A stretch of DNA of 63,413 nucleotides, filler included, from Perkinsus olseni (taxonomy: Eukaryota): NCBI GenBank assembly GCA_013115125.1. It is 46 parts of 46 records of this genome, joined end to end, with 100 filler letters (N's around TTAATTAATTAA, not from the genome) between each part and the next. Parts side by side here need not be neighbours in the genome. Positions count along the whole stretch, not along the records: positions 32,066 to 33,345 come from JABANN010001982.1; positions 33,446 to 34,725 come from JABANN010001983.1; 44 more parts are not named here. The stretch is one strand, 5' to 3'. A program made the position numbers and the translations under genes. Positions within the stretch are counted from its first letter, which is position 1; each line of letters opens with the position of its first letter. A model generated the notes under the pieces. That model was not told the DNA's origin, made no database searches, and saw only the letters and a program-made list of their open reading frames with translations. Below are positions 4,118-60,803 of the stretch, in pieces.

Positions 4118-5620
4118 NNNNNNNNNNNNNNNNNNNNNNNNNNNNNNNNNNNNNNNNNNNNTTAATTAATTAANNNNNNNNNNNNNNNNNNNNNNNNNNN
4201 NNNNNNNNNNNNNNNNNTGAGAGACAATACAACTCGTGAGTATACGTAAACAGACGGTTGGATTTGTAATGTACATCTCTTGACCACGGCTGTCTAGTGC
4301 TCTCCAAGGCTCGTGTTCCCGCTGTAAACAGCTTTGTTATGTGATTATAGGACACCCTAATACGATACTACTCTTTACTTGCCTTGTTTTCATGTACTGG
4401 ACTTCTGGCAGAGTGTTCATTGGGTCGATACTGTTGATTCTGCTGTCTTTTCCCGTCGCTAATCTCAGGCGGTATCGCGGAATTGCTCTCAAGCACTGTC
4501 ACCGAGACCCTTGAAAGGATATGCTCGCCAGAAGATGCCGGACCAGCAGTGACAGACACGAGCGTTTGCCGTGGCAGTTCGGTTGAAGGCATCTACTAGC
4601 TAGGAATTGCTCTTGGACCTCCGTGGCTGTTTACGCCGTCCGAGTTTCTTCTGGCGAACGAAGCAATAGAAGTTTTATTTCACGTGTACGTTATGACATT
4701 GTCGTAATTCAGATGAGTCACCTCTCTGTGCCTACTCTATGCGGTGTCGTGTTTGGTGAGTGTTGATGGCGCCGTAGGCAAGTCGTACGTTCGGGGCGGC
4801 GAGCCAAGCCTTTGTCGCTAACCCAGCAAGGGCGAGGATGGGTGTAAAGCTTCACGTAGCAATGCTCCGCTGTATTGTCGTGCCGAAGGACCTTGAGGTG
4901 CCGAGCTGTCATCGAGGGGAGTGTTGGTGATGTCTTCGCAACACGAGTCGTATCAGTACCATCCTCCTCGTAGCAGTTCACCAGCCTATGGGCCGAGCTC
5001 CCTCTCCTCCGACGTGGAGTCGCTCGAACTGCCACTCGCCCAGCAACTGCAGCTCGGTGTGTCGTTTGAGAGGCCATGACGGCCTTCTTCTGCAGAGGTT
5101 TGTTATGCTTCCTGGGGTCCGTTCCCACGGCTGAAGCTCTCAGGTGGGCTGTACTGTACGCCGACACCGCTGCAATAGATGATAAAGCGGGGACAAGTTT
5201 GACATTGGACGATGAAGAGCGTGAAACCATAGAGTACTCACCGATCGGAATCCCAGCCCAATACTATCCTCTCAGGTTCATTCATTCTCATAGCCTCCAT
5301 CTGGTATACGGACCAAGCGGTGATCGCTACACCAGTCTGCCGTATCGTTTGATAATGATAGATAGCGATGGTAAAGTTGGCTGGCATACGATGAGCCACG
5401 TAAAGGAGGCTATCTCAGCCGCGGAATGGCTACCAATGTAGCTGATGATAACCGCTCAGCGGAGTCGACTATTTCATTCTCAGACCCAGGCCGATCCTCT
5501 CGGATCCCTCTCTCTTCCCCNNNNNNNNNNNNNNNNNNNNNNNNNNNNNNNNNNNNNNNNNNNNTTAATTAATTAANNNNNNNNNNNNNNNNNNNNNNNN
5601 NNNNNNNNNNNNNNNNNNNN

Positions 5621-6922
5621 AAGGCCATCTTGGAGGCCATGCAGGAGGAGACGGCGGAGGGTCTGGATGTTAGCTATCTTGATGAGATGGACCGAGGAGT
5701 AGTATTCGGCTGCAGCGGTCCTATTCCAATCTCAAACTGCTGGCCAACTAAAGAGCGACGCTCACCGCACGGATGGTATCCCATTTTACGCGACGTTTGG
5801 GACAACTACTCCTCTACGCAGTCTTTCTCCGGGGAGGTGGCCAAGGCCATTGAGAAGGAGGTGGAGTTAGGGCGGATGGTGCCCATCTCGCCTATTGAGG
5901 AGAGCAAAATCCGGGCAACCTGTCGTTTAGGGTGTGTACCCTCATACGATGGCAATGGCAATCTCCGGAAAATAAGAGTAATAGATGACCTCCGCAGGAA
6001 TGGAGTGAATTCCATAATAGATGGTCATCTGAAAGAAACCTTACTCTTACCTACCGTGAAGTGTGCAGTGGCCCTCGCACAGCGATGCAAGGAGTCTGCT
6101 CGCGCCCGAGGCGATGACACTGATATCCTCTGGGTGGAAGGCGATATACGGGGGGCTTTCCGCTTGATAAGGCTGGCGGAGGAGGACACGTGGTGGGCTA
6201 CCAACTCGATCGGAGGCAGGAGGTATCGCCACCTGGCGATTCCGTTCGGTGGAGAGTCTTCTCCACTGTTGTTCATGCGTTTCTCCGGGAGTGACACGAA
6301 GATCATCAGTCGACTGCTGCGATGCTTCGATGTGTTTCATCGTTTGATGATATACATCGATGACAAGGGGTGTCCTACAACGAGGAAGACCGCAAGGATC
6401 ACTATTTTGGTGATGGTGCTGGTCGACCTCATTCTCGACGTTGACATCGCCTTTGAAAAGTTTTTCTGCAGCTCAACACCCCGGGTTCTCGGTTTCCAAA
6501 TGGACCTGAACAAGGAAGAGGTCCATCTGCCGGAGGACAAGAAAACGGCCATCCTCGAGGCTTTGGGTACTTTATCCGAGACGTCCGCTAAGGTACCACT
6601 CGCTCTAGTGGATAAAACTCTGGGTAGGTTGGTCTGGGGCTCGGTTATGTTCCAGAAGCTACGATGCCAGTTGCGACCGTTCTTCAGCGTGACAAAGGCG
6701 CTACAGAAGAAGAACCACGGCGGCGGCCGTAGGAAACACCCGGTGAAGAACATCTCCGTCGGTGTCGGTTTGGCATCAGCGGCACAATACATTCATGAGA
6801 TCCTACAGCAGCTATGCTCGGCACCTTTCGCCGGCCTGGTTCCCAGTGTGGGGCTGAGGCGAGCCGTTGTCATGTGCGATTCGTCGACATCAGCACTCGG
6901 GGGTGTGATAGTCGCTCCGGGT
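5621..6922 (+). mobile_element. DIRS/Ngaro-type (tyrosine-recombinase retrotransposon) reverse transcriptase plus start of RNase H, partial
   Basis: Open frame with RVIDDLRRNGVN, DIRGAFRLI, IPFGGESSP, YIDD, LGF, LGRLVW and CDSSTSALGG motifs. Confidence 0.85.
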
Positions 6923-8425
6923 NNNNNNNNNNNNNNNNNNNNNNNNNNNNNNNNNNNNNNNNNNNNTTAATTAATTAANNNNNNNNNNNNNNNNNNNNNN
7001 NNNNNNNNNNNNNNNNNNNNNNCAAGTGGCGGGTCCCGCCTCACTCTTCACGCTTCACACGCTTCTCGGGCGAGCCGCTACCGTCAACTGCATTAGTGAA
7101 AGTACGCTTAGTCGACGATGCTGATGAGCCTGAAATGAAGCTGCAAATTGAGCATTGACCGTTTGACTGGTTAAACGGTCGAATCACGAGTGCCTGCTTT
7201 TAATGCATTCCGACGCTTGGACCCACCTCTCACACGGTCGCTAGCATCCTCGTGCGAACTTCCGCTCGGTCGTTCATCATGGCGAGTGGACTCGTCCTCA
7301 GTCGTGCCGTACTCGTCTAGTGTGAGCGTTGGTGGTGCAGGCGACGATAGCAGGAGGTCATCAACTACCTGAGATCGACCTCCAGCGAAGTAACATCGCC
7401 GGACAGCTACATTGGATGGGATAATAGCGTTGCTGGCGGTGAGCGAGAGATCCTCGGCTGCGTCTTGGATGGCCTTGATAGAAGCATCGCTCACTTTCAA
7501 CTGGGCCTGTAAGACGGACAGTAGGGAGGAGTTGCACTCAGGGCTTTAGAATACCTGCAACTCGTGTATTATCGCCCGTAATTTTGCCGAATATTTCATC
7601 AGACTTTCGGTGTCCGCTATGTGGCGTCTACGAGCTGAGGAAGCTTGACGCCGAGATTCTTGCGCGTCAGACCGCGCAGCCAGCACTTCACATCGGAGGC
7701 TTTCCATATTCTGAATGCGGACGGCACTTCGGGACGGATCGGAAGAAGTCGGGACGGATCGGGCAACAGCGAAGAGGCCTAGGCGGCGTACCCGTTGCAT
7801 GTGCGTTATCTGCTTATCACGATTCTGGAGAAGCTCTTCCTTCGTCCTTCCCTGCTTAACCAACTGCTCTTGCCGAATGGTCAAGTCTCTCACACGAGCC
7901 TGTAACCTGTCGAAGAAGAGTGGGCTGTGACACTGGGCTGACCAGTGTCACCTTATGGCCTCCCCTCGGTATCTCTCCCGAGAGGCTTGGATCCTATCGA
8001 ACTCGCTGTCTTCGGTCGTCTCTGGGGAGGGTGAAGTCAGGACGCCCTAACCAACGACGACACCTCATGATTCCCTCAATGGCCTCCACTCACGTCTTCT
8101 ATGTGCTCCTCGACCTCAGATTCCTCCCCGGCAGCAGACTTGTCAGTCTGTGACCGATCTCCATGTGAAAATACCGGCGTAGCGATGGAAGGTCTTGCTT
8201 CGGATGACATTTTCTCCGGGCCCGGCTGAGGCTCAGCCACGACCTCCGCTTCAGTGACCTCGGCAATGCAGTACTCTAGCGTTGAGTCACCCTCCTCCTC
8301 CTCATCCTTTTCGTGCCCTGTGCNNNNNNNNNNNNNNNNNNNNNNNNNNNNNNNNNNNNNNNNNNNNTTAATTAATTAANNNNNNNNNNNNNNNNNNNNN
8401 NNNNNNNNNNNNNNNNNNNNNNNCA

Positions 8426-9722: not shown

Positions 9723-9822
9723 NNNNNNNNNNNNNNNNNNNNNNNNNNNNNNNNNNNNNNNNNNNNTTAATTAATTAANNNNNNNNNNNNNNNNNNNNNN
9801 NNNNNNNNNNNNNNNNNNNNNN

Positions 9823-11040
9823 CTTCCCAGTCCTCATCATGTGCAAGTTCCAAAGCAAAGTCGTCGGAAAGTACTTGTCGGAAGGCGGGCCTCCGGTTCT
9901 ACAGAGGTCGTTAAGGACCTCGGAAGGGTCGACCACCAACCTCACCTTGGTTGACTTCGCCTGTTTACGGATAACGGGGAAGCACGGAAGGTAGCTGACC
10001 ACGTCCTCATCGGCAGGCACGACGAACCCTTCCTCGACCAAGCCCCTGACAACTTCGAGGTAGTCACTCCTCTCGCTAGCGGAGAGGCGAGCGTCCGTAG
10101 AAAAGGCCCTTCGAGCCGCAGTAGAGTTATAACCGCCAGTGGGCCTGGCATCCCCTTTCCATGGGACGTGCAAGACGAAACGACCCAATTTGGATCTGGG
10201 CGTCGGAGGGGCGAGATCCCAGATGAAGTCGTCAGAGTCGTGCCCCTCGTGGGTAGGGATCACAGATGGCACCACAGCACCCGCGGTTAATTCCTTGGAC
10301 TGGTCGGAGGGAAACTGGGAAGTCACGATGTCAGTGGCTAAGTCATCAGGAAGTACGGGGGTGGAAGTAGATTCGGCCGCGGTGCTGAGGGCTAGGTTGC
10401 AGAGCTCGACTACACCTTGCAGGGCAGGGTCCACCGGTTTGCTGCTAGACGTAGGTCTCCCAAGATTGTATAGCTGTTGAGTGATACCATTTGCGCCTGC
10501 CTCGAAGATGAGCCGACTCTTGCCAACCAACCACACCGCATCTAGCTCACGCAGGAAGGACGCACTCAGGATGACCTGCCGAGTCAGGTCCTGTGCGGAG
10601 ACTAGAAAGTCTAGATACACCACCCGTCCTTGAGGTAGATACACCGGCAAATTCTTGATGATGCCCTTGACGGATGGACGTGGACGAGACCAGTCGGCCG
10701 TGGTGAGGGTCAGGGGGGTAGGTTGAAGGTCTACCAAACCCAAGTCCTTCAACACCGAAGACGAAAGAACGGATATCTGGGCACCGGTGTCCACGAGGGC
10801 CTGATAAGGGGTAGTAGACCGACCGAGGGTGACTGTGAGGACCGGGTCTTCCACGGACATAGGACTTAGGCTGACGGCAGAGATAACCCGCGAAGAGGGC
10901 GTCGGAGCTTTACAGGCCCAAGGTCCATGGTGACGCCTTCCGCACCGACCACAATCCTTCCCGTAGGTGTCGAAGTCTTGGGGGCATAGTTGACAGTCAG
11001 AGTGCTTCAATCCGCAGAACGGACAGCGGATCTCAGGGCG
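9823..11040 (-). mobile_element. BEL/Pao-like LTR retrotransposon gag-pol fragment (Cys/His motifs, protease, RT N-terminus)
   Basis: CPFCGLKHSDC and CGRCGRRHHGPWAC, VDTGAQIS, HVPWK, YLPCFPVIRKQAKSTKVRLVVDPS. Confidence 0.78.
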
Positions 11041-11120
11041 ATCTAGCCACACTCGCAGCAAAGCCGCTAGACGTGCGATCTCGAGTTAGGCATTCATTGT
11101 GTTACGATGGAGGTCGTATT
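11041..11120. repeat. Terminus of an interspersed repeat (Helitron-like), copy 1
   Basis: Near-identical to 31895-31965, starting ATCTAGCCACACTCGCAGCAAAGCCGCTAGA; flanks differ. Confidence 0.75.
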
Positions 11121-11220
11121 NNNNNNNNNNNNNNNNNNNNNNNNNNNNNNNNNNNNNNNNNNNNTTAATTAATTAANNNNNNNNNNNNNNNNNNNNNNNN
11201 NNNNNNNNNNNNNNNNNNNN

Positions 11221-11779
11221 TAGTTCGAATGTACTCCACAGCTTCGTGTGCCACGCTATCATATTCATCCTTGTAGAGAGCAAAGGAAGCTTTGAATGCC
11301 TGTTTCGTGATCGCTAGCTGAACGTAAGCCAGATCACGAAGCATTCGCCAGCGTAGCTTCTCATCTACCACAAGCCGCTGCAAGGCGTCTTCCACATTTT
11401 TTTTCACATGGAACCAGCACATGCATCGCTTGGCCCTGGGGTAGACGAGTTTCGCGGCATTCGTAATCTGCATCGCACCATCTGCCATAATATACTCCGG
11501 TGAATGCGGCGGCAGGTTGATTTTTTGAGCGGCCACATTCAGAGATCGGAAGAGTTCTGCGAAATCGGCTGTTTTCTCATTCCCGCATATGGCCAGAGCA
11601 ACAGGGAAAACATGATTTCTATAATCTACAATGGCCAGCAGGAGCACAGGAAATGAATGATAATTCAATTTGTATGTGGCATCAGTTGAAATCATTGGGG
11701 CAGTTCTTGTTGCTGCGATTAGTCTCCTTGTGCTGAAGACGACTTGGAATGCCGATGACCCACTGAAGTTGCTGTGTAC
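11221..11779 (-). mobile_element. Mutator/MULE transposase catalytic-domain exon, partial
   Basis: FQVVFSTRRL, DATYKLN, FPVALA, IMADG and MCWFHVKKNV motifs; candidate splice acceptor at 11780-11781; possible upstream exon at 12243-12517. Confidence 0.9.
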
Positions 11780-11841
11780 CTGAGTGCGAGAATCCTATTT
11801 TCAGTATGTATTTCGCGTTTTGTATTCGTTGAATGTTCATT

Positions 11842-11913: not shown

Positions 11914-14014
11914 TCAGAGTCCGTACTAGTCCGAGTGTCTCGTCATGTACTCAGCATCCCGTTTTGTTCAATTTCGCATGGTTTTTTCCTAAGTGTGATG
12001 ACAACGATGATTGGGAGAACCAACGAGGGCAAATTGCAGTGACTAATACTACTATTGAAATACCAGGCCTACCACGTAGGCCTTGTCCATGTCTGTCTCA
12101 GGTGGTATCTCGGCATGATCGCGTGCCATCATCTCTATATCTCTCACCGTTATCGGGCCAGAGCCACCATTTAACTGAGTCTTTTTGTATCGGAAGTGAT
12201 TGTCGAACTGAAAGGATAATGCTAGATCCGCTCAGCGGTGGACTAACCTGTTCTACAATGTATTCTCACCTGTTCGAAGCTCTTCGGCTTACAGGTCGGA
12301 TGGAGAAGTCCGTTCGATATTTGTTGTAGCAGCTTCTCATACGCTAGTTTTGGGGATATAACTCCAGCATGAAGCTCTTGCATGACGAAACTCTTTACCT
12401 CATCTCTGAGGCCTCGCTGTTTCGCCTCGTACTCTGTATGATCATGAATAGCAACTTGTCCATTCGACTCGTTCATGTATGCGACGACTTGGCGCGTTGA
12501 GTTGAGATAGTGAAGGANNNNNNNNNNNNNNNNNNNNNNNNNNNNNNNNNNNNNNNNNNNNTTAATTAATTAANNNNNNNNNNNNNNNNNNNNNNNNNNN
12601 NNNNNNNNNNNNNNNNNAGAATTTCTTATCTTCGAAACTCGAGTTTAATCTAACTAACCTGATGAATAAACTCTACTCTACCCGCACCAGTGCGTATGAA
12701 ATTATTGCCATGAGTAGGGAGATCTTCGAATATCAGCGATTACGATGCCGAAGCAGGTTTATGAGACGTTTGATCAGTTACGAATCAATGTAAATATTAG
12801 ATTACTGCGCTGGACCTATGAAAAGGGGTTATTCGAGAGCTTAACATTGATTCTCATGCTATCTGCACATCTGGTGATTTCATAGGGCATCGGATTCCTT
12901 ACAAGCACATGTGCGCATTACATGGCTTGTAGCCCACCCGTCGGGTAGGTTTTTTGGATTACCTCATGCACGTTGTTGGATGCCTTGCACGCCACATGAG
13001 CAAATCTCACAGTTCCGCTAAGCAGTTCAATCTCGAGCCGAGATTCTCGACCGTATGAATGATTCGCGCTCTGAATGAGTAGCCCAGAACCCGCTGGTTA
13101 GCGTAGTTAGGCTACGACGTAGCCGCTACGTTGAATTGCCTTGAGGTCGTTTGCTGCCCACTACCCTTGCATTGGAAGGTATACACTCAGTTCCCTGAAA
13201 ATTCACCAAGCGAGAGTTGGCGAATGAAGGAATGTCATGATTCGCTGAAGGCAGTCTATCTCGGCTCATCGATCGTGAGCTACAACCTAATCTGCGCTGG
13301 AAGGCCGGTGATGATGATCGTGTGCAGAGATGTCATAGATGAGCCTCTTCGTCTCTAATGGTCTCGAGTATACTCACAAGGGCTGTTCCGTCCAGGATTG
13401 GCCACCCACAAAGCAGCTCTTGAAGAGCTTGAAGAGCGCCCGCCGAAGAGCCGACTGACTGAATTTCAATAACTGTCAGTGGCTCATCGAAGCCACGCGC
13501 TAACGGTTGCGTGTAGGGGTATTGTGAGCCTCCAGGGTGGAGGCCTGTAACAGACCGTGTGTTCCCTTCATGGCATTTTCCAGGACAGGCCGCATGTTTA
13601 CCGGCTTCGTTCAAGCTGGGCAAGTATGCCTTAGTCGGTTTGCCTCATCATAACTGGTAGACTGGTCAAGTGACGTTCGACGATTCATCCCAGTTTCTCC
13701 TCCTTTCGTCTCAGCCCACTGTATCCCAGGCTGGGATTCGCAGCTGTGTGTCGTGAATTCTTCACTCTTGTGTATGCTGGAGAACAGGCTGGATAATTCC
13801 TATAACACGAGGGAGTCGTACAGATTGTGAGGAAGCATCTTTGTGTTTCTGGTTGCCCTGGGTCACAGATTGGGGATCTGGTTGCCCTATCGGGTCACCC
13901 GATGTTTCGGGTTTNNNNNNNNNNNNNNNNNNNNNNNNNNNNNNNNNNNNNNNNNNNNTTAATTAATTAANNNNNNNNNNNNNNNNNNNNNNNNNNNNNN
14001 NNNNNNNNNNNNNN

Positions 14015-15310
14015 ACAATCATCATTACCCAACGATAGGCAGTTACAATCAGCAAGAGACTTCTCCTCATTGCTCATTGCCGCAACCGCTGCGTTTGCGT
14101 GCATTTCGTGCACTTCACCGCGCTCGCCCGAGTGATCGATTTTGCACCATTCTTGGAGAACCGTAGCTGATCTTCTCGTTAAGTAACCATCTTCTCGCAC
14201 ATTTAAGACTTGATAGTTTCGTTGTAGTGAACGTTGGCCACCACCCTTCTTAAAGGAATGAGCTCGTAGTAGAGGAAGCCACTCTTCTTTACCACTGGCA
14301 TTGCCATTATTACACCCCGCGCTAATTTTGTAACCACCAAAATTAGAATCTTTAAGTGATTCACCCACTATGGATCCAGTCTTTGGATTCCAATATAGTC
14401 TTTGTAGATAATACGCTGTGGAATAGTGTGGGGTTGCACGCACCATGTGTAAGAGAGTGTCATTGCCTCTTGAGCTCTCCACTATACCAATTTCTGCATC
14501 ACCGAAGATGATCACGGTACCCGGAATTAAGCCACCTTTAGTCGTTTTTGTCAATGTCCACGGCCTCTCTACCTTCAGAACATGGTCATATGAGTCTACA
14601 ATAGTGTGCTGATCGTCAAGTTTCAATGAAACTTTGACGCCATCCACTCTAAGGACTTCATAAGGACCCTTCCAAGGTAAATCTAACTTGTGGGATTTCT
14701 TCTTGAATATCCACGCATAGTCACCTTCTCGAAGCTCACGATGTGGATACTTCGATGCCTTAGAGATCACAGTCTCTCTCGACTTTTCACGCATAGATTC
14801 CCACACTGGAATAAATCGTTGTTGTAGTTGTTCTCGGACCTTCTGACGTTGCTTATCAACCACAGTAGTAGAGGGAATCTTAGTCACAGTCTGCCATTGG
14901 TCTCGATTCACTCGCTTGGGTAACTCACCCATTCTCGGCTTCCTCGCCATCATGAGCTCGAAGGGCGATATAGAACCGGTCTTCTTATAGTGGAGCGTTC
15001 TAGTGTTGATTACCCATAGAATGTCATCTAGGTAATCTACCCATTCTTTGGCCGTCGGAGTCAGCGTTCGTTCACCTTCAAGTAATAGGCTTGTTAACCC
15101 ACGGTGTAGTAGTTGGTGGGGACGTTCATAACCACCACCAAGATTCGGACTGTAACGAGGTATCAACCTATGGTGGATATTATTTTCGTTACAGTAGCAT
15201 TGAAACTTCTTGCTTATAAATTGAACCCCATTGTCAAATACAATCATATGTGGGTTTCCATATATACTACACACCTTCTTGAGGGCCACCAATACATTAT
15301 CCACTGTCAT
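14015..15310 (-). mobile_element. LTR retrotransposon integrase core, GPY/F motif and long C-terminal extension, partial
   Basis: YGNPHMIVFDNGVQF, YSPNLGGGYER, SPFELM, WKGPYEV. Confidence 0.88.
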
Positions 15311-15410
15311 NNNNNNNNNNNNNNNNNNNNNNNNNNNNNNNNNNNNNNNNNNNNTTAATTAATTAANNNNNNNNNNNNNNNNNNNNNNNNNNNNNNNNNN
15401 NNNNNNNNNN

Positions 15411-15982: not shown

Positions 15983-16641
15983 TGGTGAAAATGTATTATA
16001 ATCTTGAACTTATTAAAATCATGCGCGTTCAATCGCGAGGATGGTATAGAATAGGGACGCTATTTGCTTTCCCAGTCATCAATTCTCTTATTCTCCGATT
16101 CGACTTTCTCTTCGACGAACTCAATATGAACTTGGAACGGAACGAACTGAATTCCATATTATAAACTCAAGTTGATGAAGTTGTCTGATTCTCCCTTGTC
16201 CGATGTCATACTGTTCCCGCTTCGGTAGAAATTAGCCATGACTCCTAGGGCATATTCAGGGCTCGTAGTTTTTCCTCCGAGCAGTGGGAATGGCGCGCTT
16301 TCCGAAATCGTGAGAAGGCAATGCCTTCAAGTGCGACCTAGCGCTCGGCAAGTGTTTTAAAGCTCTGGGATATAGTTTCACGAGCGTAGAGTCCGAGTCA
16401 TTCGATGAAGTCCTTTGCAATGGACTACTGTAGCAGTAGTACACTAGACAGTAGTACTATCCAAGTTGAATAATCTTACAACGTTTCTTTCGACACAGAA
16501 TGAATAGTGATTCCTAGCTCTTGCATATTGTATGGCGGCCCTAATAGAGCCCACATTAGGGCTGCATTCCCGAGCCGATTCAAAACTCTCCTACTGAGCG
16601 AGTGTCAAACGGGATGTGAGACTCACATTGTGAGTTGTTGG

Positions 16642-16705
<64 letters not shown>

Positions 16706-16706
16706 G
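16642..16706. repeat. (TGT)n microsatellite at contig end
   Basis: Perfect trinucleotide run. Confidence 0.97.
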
Positions 16707-25145: not shown

Positions 25146-26304
25146 AGCGAGAACGTCCGCCTTCACGGTTTCTGGGCGGTCATACCAGTTTATGTCAGCT
25201 TTCTACCGACAGCTGGTGCTTCCCTTCTCAAGGGTACTCGAAGGATATGTGGTACCCTTCTGGGCGGTATCGCTGCTGTCATCTGCATTCTCGCCAATCC
25301 AGGCAACAAAGCAGCATTCTTCTGTGAGATGATACTCGTGGTATTCCTTGGTCGCCTGTCCCAGTTCGACAGTCGTGTCGGTTATGCTGGGTATGTTTTC
25401 TCTCTTACTTGGTTCATGGTCGGCTTTAGTTCACTCCTCACGTCCGAGACCAAGGAGGAAATGCTCTTTGCTGCCCTTTGGCGGTTTGTCTTTACAACCT
25501 GTGGAGTCCTCATCACGTCCTTCTCCAGTTGCTTCATCTTCCCGGAGTTTGCCGCTGACAAGTTGGATCGGGCATCAGCACGTATGCTTGGCGCGGTCTC
25601 TAATAAATTAGTGACGACTCTCGACAGCTTCTACCATCAGACGAAGGCACTTGTCGGGAATGATGGATGTTCTGATGACGACGAGGTGCCGCCTACTCCC
25701 ATGTCTGATGATCGGGAAGAGTTTGGTGTGGAGGGTTTCCAGTCGATGGCCGAGCGAGCATCGCTCCTGGACGACGCCAAAATGGAGACTATCGTGTTCG
25801 GCAAGATCTTGCTGGTTCATGACGTAACGAAAAGAGTGCTCGAAAACCAGAAGTTGTTGAACCAAGTCCTGCGGGACGGTCTCGTCCTCTACAGTTCCCT
25901 GGTACTGTCCGCTAAGCATCTGCACGACCCATTGGCTTCCCAGACTCTCTCCCCTCTACTTGGTAGCATCCGAGAGTTATCGAAGGCCATCAAAACTTCA
26001 GCGGACAGGATAGTGAGTTGCCTTTACGATAGCGGTTCTACACCCGGGATGCTGGAGCATCTACCTGATGACGTGCATGTTAAACTACAAGAATGTGCAT
26101 ATAATTTCGGAGCTTTCCGTGAGGAGTGGATCGAAGACGTGATGACTGGCGGCAACAGACTACAAGGCATGCGTGGTACTAATGCGGTCCGTTTATATCA
26201 CACAGTCTATGCTCTTGCTATGTTCGCTGAACGATGGAATACACTCGAAAGCCGTTTACACAATCGTAATGCGCCAGTCGAGCTCGTGGACGCTCAGCTA
26301 CAGC

Positions 26305-26369
<65 letters not shown>

Positions 26370-26428
26370 CCAGAGCCAGCAGCCCAAAGGGCTCTCATGG
26401 TTCTGCGTTCTCGGTCGAATATTGTTCA
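25146..26428 (+). CDS. FUSC/ALMT/aromatic-acid-exporter-like membrane protein, partial, with polyQ tract
   Basis: Frame open from contig start: HGFWAVIPVYVSFLPTAGASLLKGTRRICGTLLGG, several hydrophobic helices, YAGYVFSLT, WR...G, IFP motif, then soluble helical region. Confidence 0.75.
26304..26369 (+). repeat. (CAA)22 coding microsatellite
   Basis: Perfect run, in frame as Gln. Confidence 0.95.
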
Positions 26429-32455: not shown

Positions 32456-33935
32456 AGGGGAAAGAGATAAGTACGTACTGACAGCATAGCCAATAAGAGA
32501 GTAAGTGATAAGAGCTCGAGAAGGCCGAGCATTGACAGGACAGAGAAATACAGAGAACAGATAATAGTGCACGTACTATCATAACTAATAATAAGACTGG
32601 CGCGCATGCGTGCGACCAACAGCAGCCAGGCTGATGCGCATGCGTGCACAGACGAAGAGACAGCGGAGTGACATCGCATCAGCACTGGCGCGAGCTTTCC
32701 CACCGGTTTCCATAACGCGGACGTGAAAGGTTTGCGACGTCAGTGGTAGGACTATACCATTCAGAAGTCTATTTGGCGGATAAGGTCGCCTCCGGAGGCT
32801 CTCCACCTCGATGATATGCCTGAAAGGTGCAATCGCACATGACGCGCACAATAGGACACTACGTGTCTCCGTCGTGACTTCTGTGCCTGTTAGTGCCTTG
32901 CCTTGACTGCAAGTTGGAAGTCATGCTCGAGCCGACTGGGCCAGTCGGATTGGCGTCCGATAGTCGTTCACTCAGAAGAACATCGGTTGCCTAACGCTTT
33001 CTGATTGTTGTCGTGGCTGCCGATCTGCAGCTGCCATGTAAGCATGGCATTCGGTAAAGCTCACAAACTCTTCGCCTCCCCTTCGTAGCCGTCTTGACTT
33101 AAGACAGTATAAAACCTCAAGAATCTTGGGGTTCGATATTGAAGTACACGGCCTAAGCGAAGTACCGGACCTTGCCCCATCTCGGAGACCAGAGATGCAG
33201 TCATCGCACTGTCGTGGTAAGCACGAAACGGCCGTCCGACCTAGACACACAAATAGGAAATTCTGCTCGTCACAAAACTTTTGTTCATGCGTGCAATTTA
33301 CTTTGTGCTGCGGTTCCTCGTGGAGCAGATGATGAGGATGTTCCGNNNNNNNNNNNNNNNNNNNNNNNNNNNNNNNNNNNNNNNNNNNNTTAATTAATTA
33401 ANNNNNNNNNNNNNNNNNNNNNNNNNNNNNNNNNNNNNNNNNNNNACCCCAACGCGCAATGTTTGGTAGTACTGCGTATGTTTTTGTTTCTGGCGAAACC
33501 GGCGCGTTACCCACCTAGCGGCTGTGCGAAACGAACCCCTTCGGGGTGTGCGAGTCGAACCTGCGACCTTCCGGTATAAAGGCTGGAGGTTTTTTCGCTC
33601 GCCCTGCTCGCTTGATAATTCTACGTGCGTCCTCCGCCCCGACCGGGCTGCGACCTTCCGGTGTTACGTCAGACGGTCTACCCCTCGCCCAGCTCGCTTA
33701 CTACTTGTTAGGTGCATCCTCAGCCCGGATGGGGCGTGGAGACACAGCAGTGACTTGACAGAGGTCTTGCGCCTTCGGCTGGGCCTCCCGTGCTACCCCG
33801 CATCGCGGGGACCCCAGCACGGTCGGCCCACTAGCTGCTAGCGTTCTCGCTAGCGTACTAGCTTTACTAGCTTCGATGACCTTTGTAGCTACTAGCGACG
33901 CTACTGCCGAAGTCAAAAGACGAAGTTCGTCAAAA

Positions 33936-34008
33936 AGTTTTTACTCGGAATCGAACTCGCGACCTCCTGCTTAGTAGTCCACCGCTCGCCCTGTTAGACT
34001 ACACCTAC
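33936..34008 (-). ncRNA. tRNA-derived putative Pol III module A (loop CT-ACT-AA)
   Basis: A box TAGTCTAACAGG, B box GAGTTCGATTCC, T5 just downstream; stems mispaired. Confidence 0.6.
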
Positions 34009-34185
34009 TCTTGCTATCTACATCGCTGTGTTGCCCCCGATAAGTCGACGCCAAATATTTTCTGAGCACGGTTATATCAGTTAGCTTGTTAGCGTTTTGG
34101 CTAGCGCACTAGCTTTTCTAGCTCGGGCGCCACCGTAGCTGCTAGCGTCGCTAGCCTCGTGATCCCGGTGTGATTTTCCCAAAAT

Positions 34186-34257
34186 GTTTACACCGGGGAT
34201 CGAACTCGTGCCCTCCTGCTTATCAGTCGACCGCTCGCCGTGTTAGACTAAACCTAC
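34186..34257 (-). ncRNA. tRNA-derived putative Pol III module B (loop CT-GAT-AA)
   Basis: A box TAGTCTAACACGG, B box GAGTTCGATCCC, T4 just downstream. Confidence 0.6.
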
Positions 34258-34825
34258 TGCTGAGAAGTGAAGTGCTATGTTGTCCCCGCTAGCTCGGGTA
34301 TAGCTATTTTCTGGGCGCGCTTTAGCACAAATAGTAAATTAGCTAAATTGTGGAATCTTGAATCGTTAATTTCTCTTCAACTAATTTATAAACCGAAATT
34401 CTGAGACCATATATGGGCTTTCCAGACCCATATCTAGCCGTATGCGGAGTTTGGTGAACGTTTAATGGCTGAATCGCGAGATCAGGGTCGCAGCGGGACA
34501 AATTCGCTGTGTATTATAGGGATGTTTTTAGCGCGCGCCCGGGGCCCCTCCCCCTGCGCGCGGAGGGATTTGAGCGGCAGGAAAAGCCATCCACCTAGCG
34601 GCTGTGCGAAACGAACCCCTTCGGGGTGTGCGAGTCCTGCGACCTTTCGGCTTAAAAACCGGAGTCTTTTTCGCTCGCCCTGCTCGCTTGATAATTCTAC
34701 GTGCGTCCTCAGCCCGGATCGGGCTNNNNNNNNNNNNNNNNNNNNNNNNNNNNNNNNNNNNNNNNNNNNTTAATTAATTAANNNNNNNNNNNNNNNNNNN
34801 NNNNNNNNNNNNNNNNNNNNNNNNN

Positions 34826-34899: not shown

Positions 34900-36104
34900 T
34901 CAGGGATAATTAGACGGATCTAATCTAATGACTGGCTTTGGAATACGGGACGAACGACGGAGAATGGGGGGTTCATCTTCTATACTATCGAGACTGGTAA
35001 AGCTGATACTTTCAACCATAGAAGAGTCTGAACTAGAAGATGAATGGTGGTCAGATATAGTATCATCATTGAGATCACACTGATAACAAGGAACATCAAT
35101 AGTATTACAGCTCTTAATAGTGGTCTTCTTCCTAGCTATCGTATCATCGTCCTCTATATCTGCACTTGGGGGAAGTAGACGAACTTGAGACGGATGAACG
35201 ACCTTAGCTTCGTTGTTGTCATCGAGAGAAACGATCTCTATCCGCGATGGAGAGAGAATCCTTGATACCACAAAACGCTTTGCTCCAAAGAGTGGAGTTG
35301 TTTGCGGAAAGGCAGAGTACTTGACCTTCTTCAGCACCAAGTCACCAACGGAGAGAGATAACCTGTTGTTATCATTGTTTTTGGGAGCATCCTTCTGCAT
35401 GGCTTCGTTAACCGAATTCCATAGCAATGAATTACCAAAGAAGAGAGAAGCGGGAGTGCGATGACTGACCGAATGAGAGATAGAGTTGTGGACATGGACT
35501 GCTCGCGCCAACCATGATACCACTAGACGATGATTAGCTTGTAGATGATGCTGTTGATACTGTAGTTGTAAACAAAGGATAGATTGGCGTAGTAGTCGAT
35601 GGTATCTCTCAACAACTCCATTAGTCTCTGGTTGATTAGGTATAGAATACCTCAATCTGACATTTCTTTCAGTGAAATATCGTTGTAGTCGAGCAGATTT
35701 AAATACTGCAGAGTTATCGCAAAAAACTTCTTGTGGTAGAGGGTATAAGGAGAAGTAGAAGGTGAAGACCTTGATAACACTGTTGGTGTTCTCGCCCGAA
35801 ACGAGTTCGAAAGCAAAGGCATAGCGTGAAAAACCATCGATAATGGTAAGCACCGGTCCAAGAAGAGAATGAGGATGAGTAACGTCAAAGTAGAGGCGTT
35901 CCATAGGCTTGGTGAGGGACTTCGTGAGAGAACCAGTGTGCTTATAGGACTTGCCAGCGTTAGGCTTCACTTGCAAGCAGATTTCACAAGTAGAGATGTA
36001 GGAGCCAATGTCACGATCCATGCCGGGCCAGTAGTAGTGCTTTGACAATTCTTCTCGAATCTTGGGGACACCCGCATGGTTGAACTCCTTATGAATGTCA
36101 GCAA
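34900..36104 (-). mobile_element. Ty3/Gypsy integrase (HHCC, DDE core, C-terminal tail), 3' end of pol
   Basis: YYWPGM...CEIC, YFDV, FCDN, PETNGVVER, terminal LRRSSR. Confidence 0.92.
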
Positions 36105-36205
36105 NNNNNNNNNNNNNNNNNNNNNNNNNNNNNNNNNNNNNNNNNNNNTTAATTAATTAANNNNNNNNNNNNNNNNNNNNNNNNNNNNNNNNNNNNNNNN
36201 NNNNT

Positions 36206-41879: not shown

Positions 41880-42982
41880 TCATGGCAAGGATATGACATC
41901 CTTGCGTACGATGGTCCATGAGAGATGTGGTAACTCGTGTAGCATCGCCTTAGCATATACCCTGTTCATATTACTGTCGAGAACAGAGCATCCATGAGCA
42001 TAGCTGGAGCTATCGACGAAGACATGTAGAGCTTGATGATCAACTAATCGAGGTACAGGCTTGGGGTTCTTGAGGGCTTGGTAGACTTTGTAGAATTCAC
42101 GATACAATGGGCCTGGTAGTAGTTGATCGAAGGTGATACCACATCGATGAGCATAACAAAGTACAAGTTTGCCACGGAGCACGGTTTCAGCGACGGTTCC
42201 AAGTGGATCATAAATACTGGCAAGCCACGATAGCGCTTCTCGAAGGGTCAGGGGAGAGACGGACTGGAAGTCATTTGAGCTGAGATTAGGGACATCACTC
42301 GACTCTAAATTGATGGGAGGGTCAACATGTTGAAAGACCGGAGACGGTAACTCACGTATAGGAGTAACTTGAAGGCTATCCGTAGGACCATCCCACAGCA
42401 TTCCGAAAGCCTTAACACGACCACTGTGGCCCTCCTGGCATTCCTTGGCAGGATCTAGCCAGAACCCGTGAGAGCCGAAGACTGATCTAGTTTCTACAAC
42501 CACTGTGTCCCTAGTGGTAGAGTCATTGCTACCAACTACTAGATCATCAACGTAATCAACAACAGAGTAGTCATGGGCAACCGCCGTACGACTATGAACT
42601 TCAGCTACCATTTCAGAAGTGCAATAACGTAGTATAGCAGGAGACGGCGGAAGACCCATAACAACGCGATTAAATTGATAATATGCTCCTTCGAAGTAGA
42701 AGGAGACCCAAGGCTTTGACACGGAAACATCGGCAGCAGCGGTTGTTCTCTCTTAGGACCTTGTAGTTAACACGGCGTGGGGTAGACCCAGTAGCAGCAT
42801 CGGCGTTGTTGTTGGTGGCATCGGTTTCTTGGTGATTCCTGTCGGAGGCGTTAATACCAGCCAGAGTCTCAGTGCTGGACTTGAACATATTCTGAGCTAC
42901 AGTAGCTCGGGCACGGTTCCTTAGTAACCTCACCACCTCTTTCGGTTCTCTCTCCTCAGCAACCCATTCTGCAACCCAATCC
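41880..42982 (-). mobile_element. Internally deleted BEL/Pao element: Gag remnant joined to RT C-terminus and Pao RNase H region
   Basis: NRCCRCF remnant, then YQFNRVVMGLPPSP, YVDD, FGMLWD, TLREALSWLASIYDPLG, LHVFVDSS. Confidence 0.88.
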
Positions 42983-52474: not shown

Positions 52475-52654
52475 CGAGGAACTTCTGTCCCAAGTTGGGA
52501 CACATTATGTTTTGGCGCCACCGTACGTCGTTCCTGAAGGACTCACTCGCTCATNNNNNNNNNNNNNNNNNNNNNNNNNNNNNNNNNNNNNNNNNNNNTT
52601 AATTAATTAANNNNNNNNNNNNNNNNNNNNNNNNNNNNNNNNNNNNNNNNNNNN

Positions 52655-53915
52655 CCTCCTTAAGCAATGAAGGAGAGAACAGCCCAATGTCGTGCTTGAT
52701 GATCAATGGACGAGTCCGTCTCGAACAGATGTCACAGCCTTGCATGATTGCCGATGCCTCATCCAACATACGCGGGAACCACCCACGGGACGACACCAAC
52801 TCGAGAGTACGCCGTTGGCCCGCATGGCATAATATGCCATGTATGGAATGGACGAACTCATGCTTCAGCGCATCGGGAATCACCGGAACAGTGACCTCCT
52901 TACCAACATAAGGCGGAACATACGTTCTTACTATCATATCGTAGTCATCAATCTCGAGCTGAGGTCGGACCTGCTGCAAATCCAACGATACCTTCTCAGG
53001 CAGAAGACGGTCCTGCTTGATGCTACGCCGGACAATGTAGAGCTCTTCATCATCGTACTGAGCCTCGATGACCAACGCCGTGTTCAACACAAGATCGTCA
53101 TCCACTATCGGCTGCTCCGACACACCGCCGGCCACCTTAGCAGTATCAACTTCACCACCAAGTTGTCCCTCGATGTCGAGATCATCATCAGCATTTCGAC
53201 CCAGTGCCTCATACAGGCTAAGGAACTTCTCCTCAACCCTACTCAGAATATCACTAGGGTTCTTAGTCGTCTCGACACGATGAACCTGAAGACTGTCGAA
53301 AGTCTCGGCAGTATCAAATATGGCCTGTAAGCGGCGTCCAACAACCGTCGCAGATAGTCCACCTCGCTTGACACTAGCGCCCCCTAGGAACTTGGAGATC
53401 CAGTTCCTCACACACTCATTGTCAACATACAAACGAATAGTGCCGCAGACATAAGGTGCCGCCCATATCAGTGCTTTAGCTGCCGCACATAATTCATTAA
53501 TATTGATATGGCGCAACATCTCTCGACGACTGAGCAACCAACACGCATCCCGGACCTGGATGACTTTACCCTGGGAATCTTCGTATGACAGTGTGGCTCC
53601 CATGGCCACTCCACTCGCGTCCGAGTGCAGGTGCCAACACACCGCATCACCAGGCTTGGGACAATACCACTTACCCATAGCCGGATCCCCCTCTTGGCGG
53701 AGCTTCTCATCAATATACCAGGCCAATTCCATGGTACAGAGGTCGACTTCTCTGTCCCACTCAAGGTCACTCATGGCCCTCAACAACATACCAATGTGCG
53801 GCCTCAGCCATGATGCTATGGGCACAAACCCAGTCAAGCGACCACACCAGCCTGCCAGCTCCCGCCTTGTTGGTAGCTCGTCATCATCATAATCATATTC
53901 GAGCGATATTTCTTG
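52655..53915 (-). mobile_element. Ty3/Gypsy-like pol fragment (RNase H, integrase HHCC), same lineage as 23759-25043
   Basis: PIASWLR, EGDPAMGKW, HSDAS, HININEL, YVDN, NPSDILSR, HGILCHAG...WFPRM...CDIC. Confidence 0.88.
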
Positions 53916-54259
53916 NNNNNNNNNNNNNNNNNNNNNNNNNNNNNNNNNNNNNNNNNNNNTTAATTAATTAANNNNNNNNNNNNNNNNNNNNNNNNNNNNN
54001 NNNNNNNNNNNNNNNACCAGCTGCCTAAACAGCAGCCTGTTGGTCTGGCAATGCTTCTCGCTGTTCGGGCCAGAATCGCCCCGATGGTTCGGCGGGGGTA
54101 AGATGGCCTGCCGACTCGGCAGTGCCCAGCCATCGCGCGGTATGTAATGGTACACCTTTGCCTCCGAAATTTCGACGAGGGAAATGTGAAACGGTAAAAA
54201 ATAGGGTTTTTGTTATTCAGCTCTGCCGAGCAGAATGTTCCGTTACAAGCGTATCTATC

Positions 54260-56459: not shown

Positions 56460-56563
56460 CTGTGGTTTCGACGGCGGGGATGCGGGGCCACCGCATAACC
56501 GTCAATTGCCACCCGTCCGCATGGGCCCTTGGCTGCTGGGGTACTTCCCTGCCGCTCGGTTGC

Positions 56564-56632
<69 letters not shown>
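56564..56632. repeat. (TGT)n microsatellite at contig end
   Basis: Perfect trinucleotide run. Confidence 0.97.
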
Positions 56633-57896: not shown

Positions 57897-58090
57897 AGCG
57901 CCCCTTTCTTTGGGTTCGATATAAACCCTTCCACAAAATTATATCACATCGCGTTTTTTCCTCATTTCTTCCAATTTATTGCGATTGGGGNNNNNNNNNN
58001 NNNNNNNNNNNNNNNNNNNNNNNNNNNNNNNNNNTTAATTAATTAANNNNNNNNNNNNNNNNNNNNNNNNNNNNNNNNNNNNNNNNNNNN

Positions 58091-59347
58091 TCACGCTTAA
58101 ACTGAAAGCAGATCTTACTAGCCGCATTGCTAGAAGCCCGAGCCGTAGTTGGAGTAGGGGTAGGGTCAGTGGTGGCCACCTGGTGGATGGTAATAGCCCT
58201 AGAAGGAGATGATGTAACAATCGACCGCATCTTTTCCCGCTGAGTTAACGAACTGACCAGAGTAGCATAAGTAGGTTTCTGACCAGCCAACCTATCCAAA
58301 GCAACGTCCCGGACCTCCGGGAGCAGACCACATAATAGATTGGTAGCCTTCGACTCGTCATCCAGATGCTCCTTACCAAAGGCTTCAACATTGCTAACCA
58401 GCTCCTTGAACCGTCGAACGAACGCCGTAACGGACTCGTTCTTACCTTGGCGGCAAGACTGCAATTCTTGCAACGCCTGGAGCCTACAAACCGATATAGA
58501 AATGCCCTTGCACAAACCTTGCAGAGCAACCACCATACGCCTGACTTCCTTCACCCACTCCAAAGAAGAGGAGCCAGAAGGGAGTCTCGGCTTGACATCT
58601 ACCACCACAGACTCGGCCAAGTTGTTGACCAAGGTAAAATACAGCGCAGGCGGATCCAACAATAGCCCACGAGACACAGCCATGGTCTTGAACTTCCTGA
58701 ACCATACTGGAAACGGTCTAGGGTCTTCAACACCAAGAAAAGGAGAGTCGCCAACAATCCACGACTTCTCAGAGGCTTCTCGACGGGCACTGGATCGATC
58801 CTTACGCTCAACTGTATACTCCGCAGTTGAATCCAAAGGAGGCCATCCACCCAAATCTTCCGGAGCACCTTGAGCAACTTCCTTCTCGTCCAGGGCCATC
58901 TCATCTTCGGGCTTCACTACCGACCGGGCCACAATCTCGGACCCTGGGGAAGAAGCCAGAACCTTCGGAGCAACATAGTCCAACTGCGCGGTCAACGTGT
59001 CCAACCGAGCTTGAAGTGTAGCACCACTCTTCAAAGCCTCCACGTTCTGACACCAAGGGGAGAAGTAGTCCTTCACCAAGTCTCGTCGATAGTTGCTAAG
59101 CTCTCGACGAGAGACACCTGCCTCCTCATTCCTAGCCATCAGAGTACCAAAGAGTAGGAACATGTTATGAGCCTTCATTTCGAGCGGATCATCACTTGAA
59201 AGAACACGGCTAACAGCGTCCTTATAACTCTCGGGAGTAAGAACCCCTTCCCCCAAGGACTGCAACTGAGTAGCCGATATCTCAGGAGTGAGATGAGGAT
59301 AGCCAAGCCACGAAATCAGAATCTTATCAATAGGCCCCGCCTGTCCC
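58091..59347 (-). mobile_element. LTR retrotransposon Gag (Retrotrans_gag-like), partial
   Basis: CRQGKNESVTAFVRRFKELV motif, LLCGL; ends KICFQFKR (start of a CCCH-like finger). Confidence 0.82.
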
Positions 59348-59884
59348 NNNNNNNNNNNNNNNNNNNNNNNNNNNNNNNNNNNNNNNNNNNNTTAATTAAT
59401 TAANNNNNNNNNNNNNNNNNNNNNNNNNNNNNNNNNNNNNNNNNNNNTTCATAGATTCTACACAGCGATACAGCACCGATCATCGGTACGCATACCTGTC
59501 GAGCTCATGCTTACTCCCGCCTACTCGCATAGTTCCCGCGTTCTTGGTGGATGTCTTTCCTGACCCACACAACCCGTTTGCGCGCAGGGGGAGGGGCCCC
59601 GGGCGCGCGCTAAAATACATCCCTATAATACACAGCGAATTTGTCCGTTTCGAAGCCGATTTTGCGAAAAAGCCACATAACTCCCTCTGAAACTTTGCAT
59701 GCGGGTAGATATGGGTCTGGAAAGGCCAGGTATGGTCTCAGAATTTCAGTTTATAAATTAGTTGACGAGAAATTAACGATTCAAAGTACGAGAATTTAGC
59801 TAAAATGAATTTTCGTGCGAAAACGCGCCCTAAAATAGCTGTCGCCGAGCTATCGGGGACAACAGAGCACTCAAGATGACAAGA

Positions 59885-59956
59885 GTAAGATTAGTCGAAC
59901 ACGGCGAGCGGTCGACTGGTAAGCAGGAGGGCACGGGTTCGATTCCTGGTACCAAC
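59885..59956 (+). ncRNA. tRNA-derived putative Pol III module C (loop CT-GGT-AA)
   Basis: TAGTCGAACACGG, GGGTTCGATTCC, T4 at 59958-59961. Confidence 0.6.
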
Positions 59957-60144
59957 ATTTTACAGAAAGCCGCACCTGGACTCCGAGGCTGGCGACGCTA
60001 GCAGCTAGGGTGCCGCCCGAGCTAGAAAAGCTAGTACGGTAGCCAAAACGCTAACAAGCTAACTGAAACGCTAACAGCCACCCGTGGTCGGAAAATGTTT
60101 GGCGTCGACTTGTCCGGGGCAACACAGTGATATCAATATCAAGA

Positions 60145-60216
60145 CTAGGTTTAGTCTAACAGGGCGAGCGGTTGACTAGTAAGCAGGAGGTCGCGAGTTC
60201 GACCCCAAGTACAATC
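60145..60216 (+). ncRNA. tRNA-derived putative Pol III module D (loop CT-AGT-AA, tRNA-Thr-like)
   Basis: TAGTCTAACAGG, CTAGTAAGCAGGAGGTC, GAGTTCGACCCC, T4 at 60218-60221. Confidence 0.6.
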
Positions 60217-60803
60217 ATTTTAACGAAATGCGTCTTCTGACTCCGAGAGTAGCGTCGCTAGCGGCGAGGGAGGTCATCCAAGCTCTTTAAGCTAGTACGC
60301 TAGCCACAACGCTAGCAGCTAGTGGGCCGACCGTGCTGGGGTCCCCGCGATGCGGGGCAGCACGGGAGGCCCAGCCGAAGGCGCACGACCTCTGTCAAGT
60401 CACCGCTGTGTCTCCACGCCCCATCCGGGCTGAGGATGCACCTACAAAGTAGCACGCGAGCTAGGCGAGGGGTAGAGAGCCCGACTTGACACCGGAAGGT
60501 CGCAGCCCGATCCGGGCTGAGAACGCACGTAGAAGTATCAAGCGAGCAGGGCGAGCGAAAAAACCTCCAGTTTTTATACCGAAAGGTCGCAGGACTCGCA
60601 CACCCCGAAGGGGTTCGTTTCGCACAGCCGCTAGGTGGATGGCTTTTCCTGCCGCTCAAATCCCTCCGCGCGCAGGGGGAGGGGCCCCGGGCGCGCGCTA
60701 CAGNNNNNNNNNNNNNNNNNNNNNNNNNNNNNNNNNNNNNNNNNNNNTTAATTAATTAANNNNNNNNNNNNNNNNNNNNNNNNNNNNNNNNNNNNNNNNN
60801 NNN

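Follow-up and report, generated by a model that had tools for sequence, protein, structure and literature searches.

A tRNA-gene-derived tandem satellite of Perkinsus olseni whose module cores may be kept as Pol III promoters or TFIIIC sites

Transfer RNA (tRNA) genes and sites occupied by TFIIIC alone act as chromatin barriers in fission and budding yeast. Promoters of RNA polymerase III (Pol III) are also carried by two transcribed satellites, satellite 1 of Xenopus laevis and the Hy/Pol III satellite of salamanders. Here, we describe a 1.08-kb repeat found in a 63,413-base stretch of DNA from Perkinsus olseni, hereafter called the window. Tentatively, and with somewhat less than an even chance of being right, we read this repeat as a satellite of tRNA-gene fossils whose cores are kept as a Pol III promoter or TFIIIC site. 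In the yeast barriers, B-box DNA acts through TFIIIC, with or without a useful RNA, and the Perkinsus modules may act by the same mechanism. The yeast barriers are, however, single or few sites beside heterochromatin, whereas the Perkinsus case is a satellite monomer.

Several described tandem repeats are close to the Perkinsus one. In Entamoeba, tRNA genes are arranged in tandem units carrying up to 5-6 intact genes with microsatellite-like repeats between them, and these arrays represent more than 10% of the genome; a role at chromosome ends had been proposed for them, at that time without a test, and the authors report no clear evidence of pseudogenes (PMC2652664). The Entamoeba arrays and the Perkinsus satellite are alike in having tandem units of ~1-2 kb, several tRNA-type modules and short repeats in between, in making up a large share of the genome of a parasitic protist, and in having a debated function. 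The Entamoeba genes are intact, however, whereas the Perkinsus modules are stemless, and the two lineages, Amoebozoa and Alveolata, are unrelated. Satellites related to short interspersed nuclear elements (SINEs) or to Pol III genes are represented in Table 1 of PMC6947457 by Xenopus laevis satellite 1 and by the Hy/Pol III satellite of European plethodontid salamanders. They share with the Perkinsus satellite a tandem arrangement and a monomer of Pol III-type origin in which A/B-box-like motifs persist. They stem from SINE-like elements, whereas the Perkinsus module is exactly one tRNA long, is followed by its own T run and has no dispersed copies in the other 44 contigs of the window. Finally, the human tRNA repeat at 1q23.3 has a 7.3-kb unit present in 9-43 copies, with intact tRNA genes and a CTCF site, and a chromatin boundary role is proposed for it (PMC4041453); it is likewise a tandem repeat with tRNA genes, but not a high-copy satellite. 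A tRNA-gene-derived satellite is a known kind, and the present one is, provisionally, new in a lineage without a described satellite. The open-access literature, taken without supplements, yielded no description of satellite DNA in Perkinsus and no report on its centromeres or chromosome-end structure, in provisional agreement with the first-pass annotation of the window, which had called the satellite undescribed; the papers that come nearest are two on spliced-leader RNA, and one review (PMC5615363) contains no occurrence of the word "tRNA".

The window consists of 46 unplaced contigs of 1255-1307 bp each, ordered by decreasing length and separated by N...TTAATTAATTAA...N linkers, and features read across a join are without physical linkage. 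Both copies of the unit that had been noticed, at 33511-34725 and 59581-60703, are indeed present; they lie on two separate contigs, c25 (33446-34725, 1280 bp) and c44 (59448-60703, 1256 bp), a make-up that the annotation had missed. The parts of these two contigs are as follows, with no strand assigned.

33446..34725, no strand: contig c25, a 65-bp variant linker plus 1.13 satellite units (contig boundaries; self-overlap at period 1080).
33446..33510, no strand: alternative linker variant, not unique flank, which replaces 34549-34590 in a subset of units.
33511..34590, no strand: one complete monomer of 1080 bp (self-overlap, unit alignment).
34591..34725, no strand: beginning of the following monomer (89% identity to 33511-33649), with a 4-bp deletion in the B-box-like site.
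59580..60703, no strand: satellite part of c44, oriented opposite to c25 and made up of one full unit and 65 bp of the unit before it.
59448..59579, no strand: tail of c44 departing from the unit, without a match to the other 44 contigs.

The period of 1080 is given by the self-overlap of c25, in which 33511-33649 and 34591-34725 are 89.2% identical over 139 bp. With its 1.13 units, this contig is the longest stretch of the satellite seen in one piece. Its neighbouring units are set apart by a 4-bp indel and by differences at 11% of sites, so the overlap is not a trivial artefact of a circle or of duplicated ends. Contig c44 is a reverse-complement copy of the c25 unit (84.6% identity over 1103 bp) and has a self-overlap of its own, of 71 bp and period 1088. 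Its tail is at first weakly unit-like and then without any resemblance, and may represent the edge of an array, a degenerate unit or an insertion. As for the beginning of c25, contigs of run X1 join 34547/34548 to 33446-33448, and 33446-33510 does not align to the c44 unit. The joints identify the first 65 bp of c25 as a linker variant of the unit.

The repeat was also searched for in independent runs. Twelve runs from six studies contain part of it, and at least half of the sampled words are found in five of them. Counted as contig pieces of four runs aligned to the unit at ≥80% likeness, which does not give a calibrated copy number, the matches amount to 5162 pieces in run X1 and 1629 in run X5, spread over identity classes. 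Contigs of independent runs of the same organism contain head-to-tail joints from the end of the unit back to its start, while other joints reflect the subrepeat of ~250 bp. The tandem arrangement first proposed, with a period of 1080 (1088 in c44), is thus borne out by both the self-overlaps and the end-to-start joints. There is little cover at 80% likeness over 33618-33660 and 34263-34348, which are probably variable among copies. No RNA run is listed among those that contain the repeat; X7 and X10 are RNA by guess only and are available as contigs, so that their cover has no bearing on transcription. Public metagenome contigs gave no match to the core of the module and none to the core of the GC-rich block described below. 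Head-to-tail units on the one hand, and a high copy number with many variants on the other, are two of the marks of a satellite, and both are observed. That the repeat is a genuine, abundant tandem nuclear satellite DNA of a Perkinsus-type alveolate is well supported.

Each unit carries two tRNA-like modules, called C and D. The four modules available are listed below; positions 1-72 refer to tRNA-equivalent numbering.

33932..34008, minus strand: module C of c25; positions 1-72 run from 34008 down to 33937, T5 at 33936-33932, anticodon-equivalent ACT at 33975-33973.
34181..34257, minus strand: module D of c25; positions 1-72 run from 34257 down to 34186, T4 at 34184-34181, anticodon-equivalent GAT.
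60145..60221, plus strand: module C of c44; positions 1-72 at 60145-60216, T4 at 60218-60221, anticodon-equivalent AGT.
59885..59961, plus strand: module D of c44; positions 1-72 at 59885-59956, T4 at 59958-59961, anticodon-equivalent GGT.

Canonical tRNA numbering fits all four 72-nt modules without an indel, the D loop being 8 nt and the variable loop 5 nt long. All of them keep U8, R9, A14, G18, G19, Y32, U33, R37, G53, T54, T55, C56, R57, A58, and C61. When searched in its canonical spacing, this pattern of invariants finds the four modules and has no other match in the 46 contigs. By first-order Markov resampling of all contigs, 0.045 matches are expected on average (a match in 9 of 200 resamples), and the expectation for the two satellite contigs alone is 0.002 (4 of 2000). 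A run of four or five T starts at tRNA-equivalent position 73 or 74 in every module. This location, directly at the tRNA-equivalent end as in the terminator of a tRNA gene, speaks for a tRNA gene, rather than a SINE, as the parent. Type 2 Pol III promoters have an A box of consensus TRGCNNAGTGG and a B box of consensus GGTTCGANTCC. A B-box-like GTTCGA..CC is found at positions 52-62 of all four modules. The sequence GGTTCGANTCC itself, exact or with one mismatch, occurs in two of them and in a third module-like piece, and three of its six matches window-wide fall in the two satellite contigs, which make up 4% of the window. The best-kept T arm, with four of five pairs plus an exact GGTTCGATTCC, is that of module D of c44. 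The A box (positions 8-19) shows T8, R9, G10, A14, G18, and G19, but has T in place of C11 and other letters in the loop. Hence, of the three elements that the first-pass annotation had assigned to all modules, the B box and the T run stand and the A box is kept only in part. Taken together, the invariant pattern and the indel-free alignment support its view that the modules are tRNA-derived, and, judged from sequence comparison, the case for descent from a tRNA gene is strong.

The anticodon loop reads CT-ACT/GAT/AGT/GGT-AA across the four modules, as had been described, but with four copies a "variable anticodon" is without statistical weight. At position 33974, the majority of reads turns ACT into AGT (5970.6/7752 in run X1 and 104371.7/140456.4 in run X5). 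A third and weaker module-like piece, missed in the annotation, is located at 33552-33610 and shares CAGGGCGAGCG and AGGTCGCAGGTTCGACTC with the module profile. Its nhmmer E-value is 0.18 against all contigs, or ~0.004 when scaled to c25 alone by arithmetic, and its homology to the modules is probable. No match of the profile points to a possible fourth module within 33552-33700. Outside the satellite, positions 249-300 of contig c1 resemble the 3' half of the module, including the T-arm-like GGGTCGATCCCC and ACATTTTG. They were not accepted as a dispersed copy, as the match is not significant (nhmmer E=0.064) and goes no further than the T-arm part. A tRNA-derived SINE was also considered and rejected, given that there is no significant dispersed copy in the other 44 contigs (56 kb; best E=0.064) and that the T run directly follows the tRNA-equivalent end.

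The modules have lost the structure of a tRNA. When a cloverleaf is imposed on them, 42 of 84 cells pair (50%), as compared with 31-46% when partners are slid; the loss of stem pairing that had been proposed is confirmed by these controls. Helix by helix, pairing is 46% in the acceptor stem, 69% in the helix at the D-stem position and 45% in both the anticodon and the T stems. RNAalifold gives the modules a consensus energy of -7.9 kcal/mol with a covariation term of 0, and no shared structure. No compensatory change was seen in the stems of the four copies. In Rfam, the only match to c25 at E<=10 is a chance-level one to a plasmid antisense RNA (E=8.6), and no family is found in the whole window at the gathering score. 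Because the stems of all four modules have lost pairing, no tRNA can be made from them. The modules are fossils, not working tRNAs.

Conservation was measured within the four module copies and, between contigs, on two copies of the unit. In the alignment of the four subrepeats, the best window of 55 columns starts exactly at tRNA position 8, where the A box begins, and ends at the end of the B box. Within this span (positions 8-62), 45 of 55 columns are invariant, compared with 95 of 208 outside (Fisher p=1.5e-6). Fixed differences between subrepeat 1 and subrepeat 2 recur in c25 and c44 alike, and this conservation is therefore not due to recent conversion between the paralogs. The comparison suggests, with moderate strength, that positions 8-62 are under constraint. 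Between c25 and c44, the modules are identical at 59 of 66 and 58 of 66 positions (88-89%) and the whole unit at 904 of 1066 (84.8%). Four blocks are better kept than the modules, namely 33511-33550 (100%), 33591-33630 (97.5%), 33700-33845 (140/146), and 34495-34562 (66/69). These blocks and the remaining parts of the unit are given below, again without a strand.

33511..33640, no strand: well-conserved block (40-bp windows 100%, 82.5%, and 97.5% identical, c25 vs c44).
33700..33845, no strand: GC-rich hairpin block, longer than any other highly conserved part of the unit (140/146 columns identical, c25 vs c44).
33831..33897, no strand: CTAGC short-repeat tract 1.
33832..34073, no strand: subrepeat 1, made up of CTAGC tract, module C and spacer (70% identical to subrepeat 2 over 243 bp).
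34079..34156, no strand: CTAGC/TTAGC short-repeat tract 2.
34082..34322, no strand: subrepeat 2, made up of CTAGC tract, module D and spacer (self-comparison, four-copy alignment).
34346..34440, no strand: AT-richer block, moderately conserved (84/95 columns identical).
34441..34494, no strand: most variable part of the unit (33/55 columns identical; many read variants).
34495..34562, no strand: conserved block ending in the GC palindrome GCGCGCGCCCGGGGCCCC...GCGCGC (66/69 columns identical).

The division into two CTAG-rich subrepeats of ~250 bp with one tRNA-like module each, seen from the outset, is upheld by the 70% identity over 243 bp and by the CTAG density. The latter reaches 11.7 and 10.4 per kb in c25 and c44, a 5-fold enrichment over the 2.25 per kb of the other 44 contigs. 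CTAG occurs there as CTAGC spaced by 2-7 nt, and in each subrepeat the tract is followed by one module. Within the block 33511-33640 lie the hairpin CCCCTTCGGGG (33536-33546), on the minus strand a B-box-like 11-mer (33551-33561) and on the plus strand a T6 run (33590-33595). The plus-strand hairpin with its T6 run, at 33505-33602, was tried as a small RNA and set aside, all three copies folding no better than shuffles. A further block, GGGG(A/C)CAACA.AG, lies ~20-35 nt upstream of tRNA-equivalent position 1, within 33960-34045 and 34210-34300 (upstream of the modules on the minus strand), and is largely kept in the four subrepeat copies. This block may represent an upstream promoter element or simply one more conserved patch.

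The following history would account for these features. A segment of ~250 bp, consisting of a CTAGC tract and, behind it, a tRNA gene complete with oligo-T terminator, would have been duplicated to give rise to the 1.08-kb monomer, in which 33552-33610 probably represents a third, more decayed copy of the tRNA gene. The tRNA function would then have been lost, with the span 8-62 changing at about one third of the rate seen elsewhere in the subrepeat, and we infer that this span is kept as a still-acting type 2 Pol III internal promoter or as a landing site for TFIIIC. Each unit would load TFIIIC, with or without Pol III, the modules may give unstructured transcripts of ~75-80 nt ending at the T run, and the array would form a dense TFIIIC/Pol III platform in repeated chromatin. 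By analogy with described systems, the case for the use of the modules by TFIIIC or Pol III is weak, though plausible. In its most ambitious form, in which a very large stemless fossil array is a dedicated TFIIIC/Pol III platform marking a chromosomal domain, maybe centromeres or, as once suggested for the arrays of Entamoeba, chromosome ends, and perhaps releasing unstructured ~75-80 nt RNAs in large numbers, the proposal is a long shot. The only hypervariable spot of the RNAs released by such a platform may then be the two bases at the former anticodon.

Several observations weigh against cores kept for Pol III or TFIIIC. Only four module copies are behind all the conservation statistics. 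The invariant pattern was written after the modules had been seen and its four matches are copies of one ancestor, so that it amounts to one event, with P<0.05 as a rough figure. Only part of the A box is kept. The A and B boxes, with 18 of 23 columns invariant, do not exceed the inter-box stretch in conservation (27 of 32, p=0.73), which is not what a pure promoter model predicts. The boxes had been expected to be better conserved than their surroundings, and this holds for the span 8-62 as compared with its flanks but not for the boxes as compared with the inter-box stretch. Between contigs, the modules are only slightly above the mean of the unit and below the four blocks mentioned above. 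The neighbourhoods of the T runs are poorly kept (17/23 and 15/22), though the T run itself persists. Finally, ARAGORN makes no call in the window at default settings or down to thresholds of 80%, and Rfam gives no tRNA match at E<=10 on c25 or on a single 111-bp module. When the threshold is lowered to 70%, ARAGORN makes 228 calls on the other 44 contigs; at 5.2 per unrelated contig, its calls on the satellite are noise.

Some of these points are also those that favour the same satellite and the same tRNA-gene origin with modules that are inert fossils, the apparent constraint then resulting from the sampling of four copies, from concerted evolution or from local differences in mutation rate. 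This is a serious, if doubtful, alternative. It agrees with boxes that are no better kept than the inter-box stretch, with the higher conservation of other blocks between contigs, and with fully decayed stems whose consensus fold is weak and has no covariation. Moreover, satellites commonly show uneven conservation without a known function. Under neutrality, however, the limits of the best-kept window, its start exactly at position 8 and its end at the B box, would be a coincidence. The T run is found at position 73/74 in all four copies despite variable surroundings, and the paralog-specific differences show that orthology was kept, not that copies were recently homogenised. The functional parts could instead lie elsewhere in the unit, in 33700-33845, 33511-33640, and 34495-34562, as protein-binding DNA (for example, centromeric or heterochromatic) or as a non-tRNA RNA, with the fossils as passengers. 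We consider this unlikely, even though identity in these blocks is 96-100% between contigs with an overall difference of 15%, a comparison that involves two copies only. Run X10, whose label is that of a second organism (organism B), yielded a single piece, which is 209 bp long and covers 33677-33885 with 5 differences; a relative may have the GC-rich block too, or Perkinsus olseni may be present in the sample. The GC-rich block folds somewhat better than shuffles (z = -2.46 on the plus and -2.17 on the minus strand), but these scores are modest and similar on both strands, so that the block fits a DNA palindrome as well as an RNA. Rfam offers nothing at E<=10 beyond the chance-level match. 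The unit has no conserved open frame either, the longest (123 aa) being broken by a 4-bp indel in other copies and having no protein relatives among 58 candidates.

The other alternatives are far less probable. An assembly artefact, or an extrachromosomal circle of ~1.08 kb that only looks tandem, is very improbable. No contig carries more than 1.13 units, the contigs are unplaced scraps of a draft assembly, and end-to-start joints fit circles as well as arrays; against this, the neighbouring units of c25 differ at 11% of sites and by the 4-bp indel, c44 runs from the unit into non-unit sequence, and runs from several studies contain thousands of variant pieces. An array of working tRNA genes as in Entamoeba is more improbable still. 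The tandem units with tRNA-like modules, the short-repeat tracts between them and the T run after each module recall such an array, but cloverleaf pairing at background level, negative ARAGORN and Rfam searches and the lack of compensatory change contradict it for these four copies. Genes for spliced-leader (SL) RNA, 5S RNA, and small nuclear RNA are tandem in Perkinsus and dinoflagellates, and an array of this type is the least probable origin of all, its chance being close to nil. In P. marinus, tandem SL RNA genes are described together with many non-functional tandem SL-like sequences, without product in rapid amplification of cDNA ends or blots (PMC3101222); the tandem SL-like loci listed with this paper and with PMC9399869 might include related contigs. 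The Perkinsus olseni unit does contain ACCGTAGC, the first 8 nt of the published SL. An SL RNA array is nevertheless contradicted by the absence of any match to the 22-nt PmaSL1 in the window with up to 3 mismatches, and by the absence of an Rfam family at the gathering score. We retain, with the reserve stated at the outset, the reading of tRNA-gene fossils whose cores are kept for Pol III or TFIIIC.

The other contigs of the window are of a different nature. Frames of transposons are located at 5573-6970, 9775-11085, 11165-11794, 13967-15358, 34900-36156, 41880-42752, 52599-53963, and 58039-59391, with reverse transcriptase, aspartyl protease, MULE transposase, integrase, Pao-type peptidase, and gag domains. 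Transposon debris makes up most of the small unplaced contigs. Contig c19 (25146-26426, plus strand) carries part of a host gene for an ALMT/FUSC-type transporter. With 91% identity, this fragment matches a Perkinsus olseni protein over 100% of its length; its identity to a P. chesapeaki protein is 39%. It is this match, on a contig other than c25 and c44, that places the assembly in Perkinsus by sequence. The fragment ends in ~24 glutamine codons at the contig end, where TRF finds an array (26300-26370). Two (GTT)n arrays of ~24 copies each (16634-16706 and 56559-56632) are also at the extreme ends of contigs, and trinucleotide runs seem to be common break points of the assembly. Telomere-type repeats are absent from the window, which has no bearing on the location of the satellite.

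Perkinsus is an important shellfish pathogen and belongs to the sister lineage of dinoflagellates. An abundant and easily probed satellite of 1.08 kb is a handle for fluorescence in situ hybridization, long-read scaffolding, and strain typing. If the cores are inert, it is an ordinary satellite with a traceable origin. If, on the other hand, the cores load TFIIIC or Pol III, Perkinsus would be the second independent case, after Entamoeba, of a parasite with a sizeable share of its genome in tRNA-type arrays, and units unable to make a tRNA would set what such arrays do in chromatin apart from what they encode.

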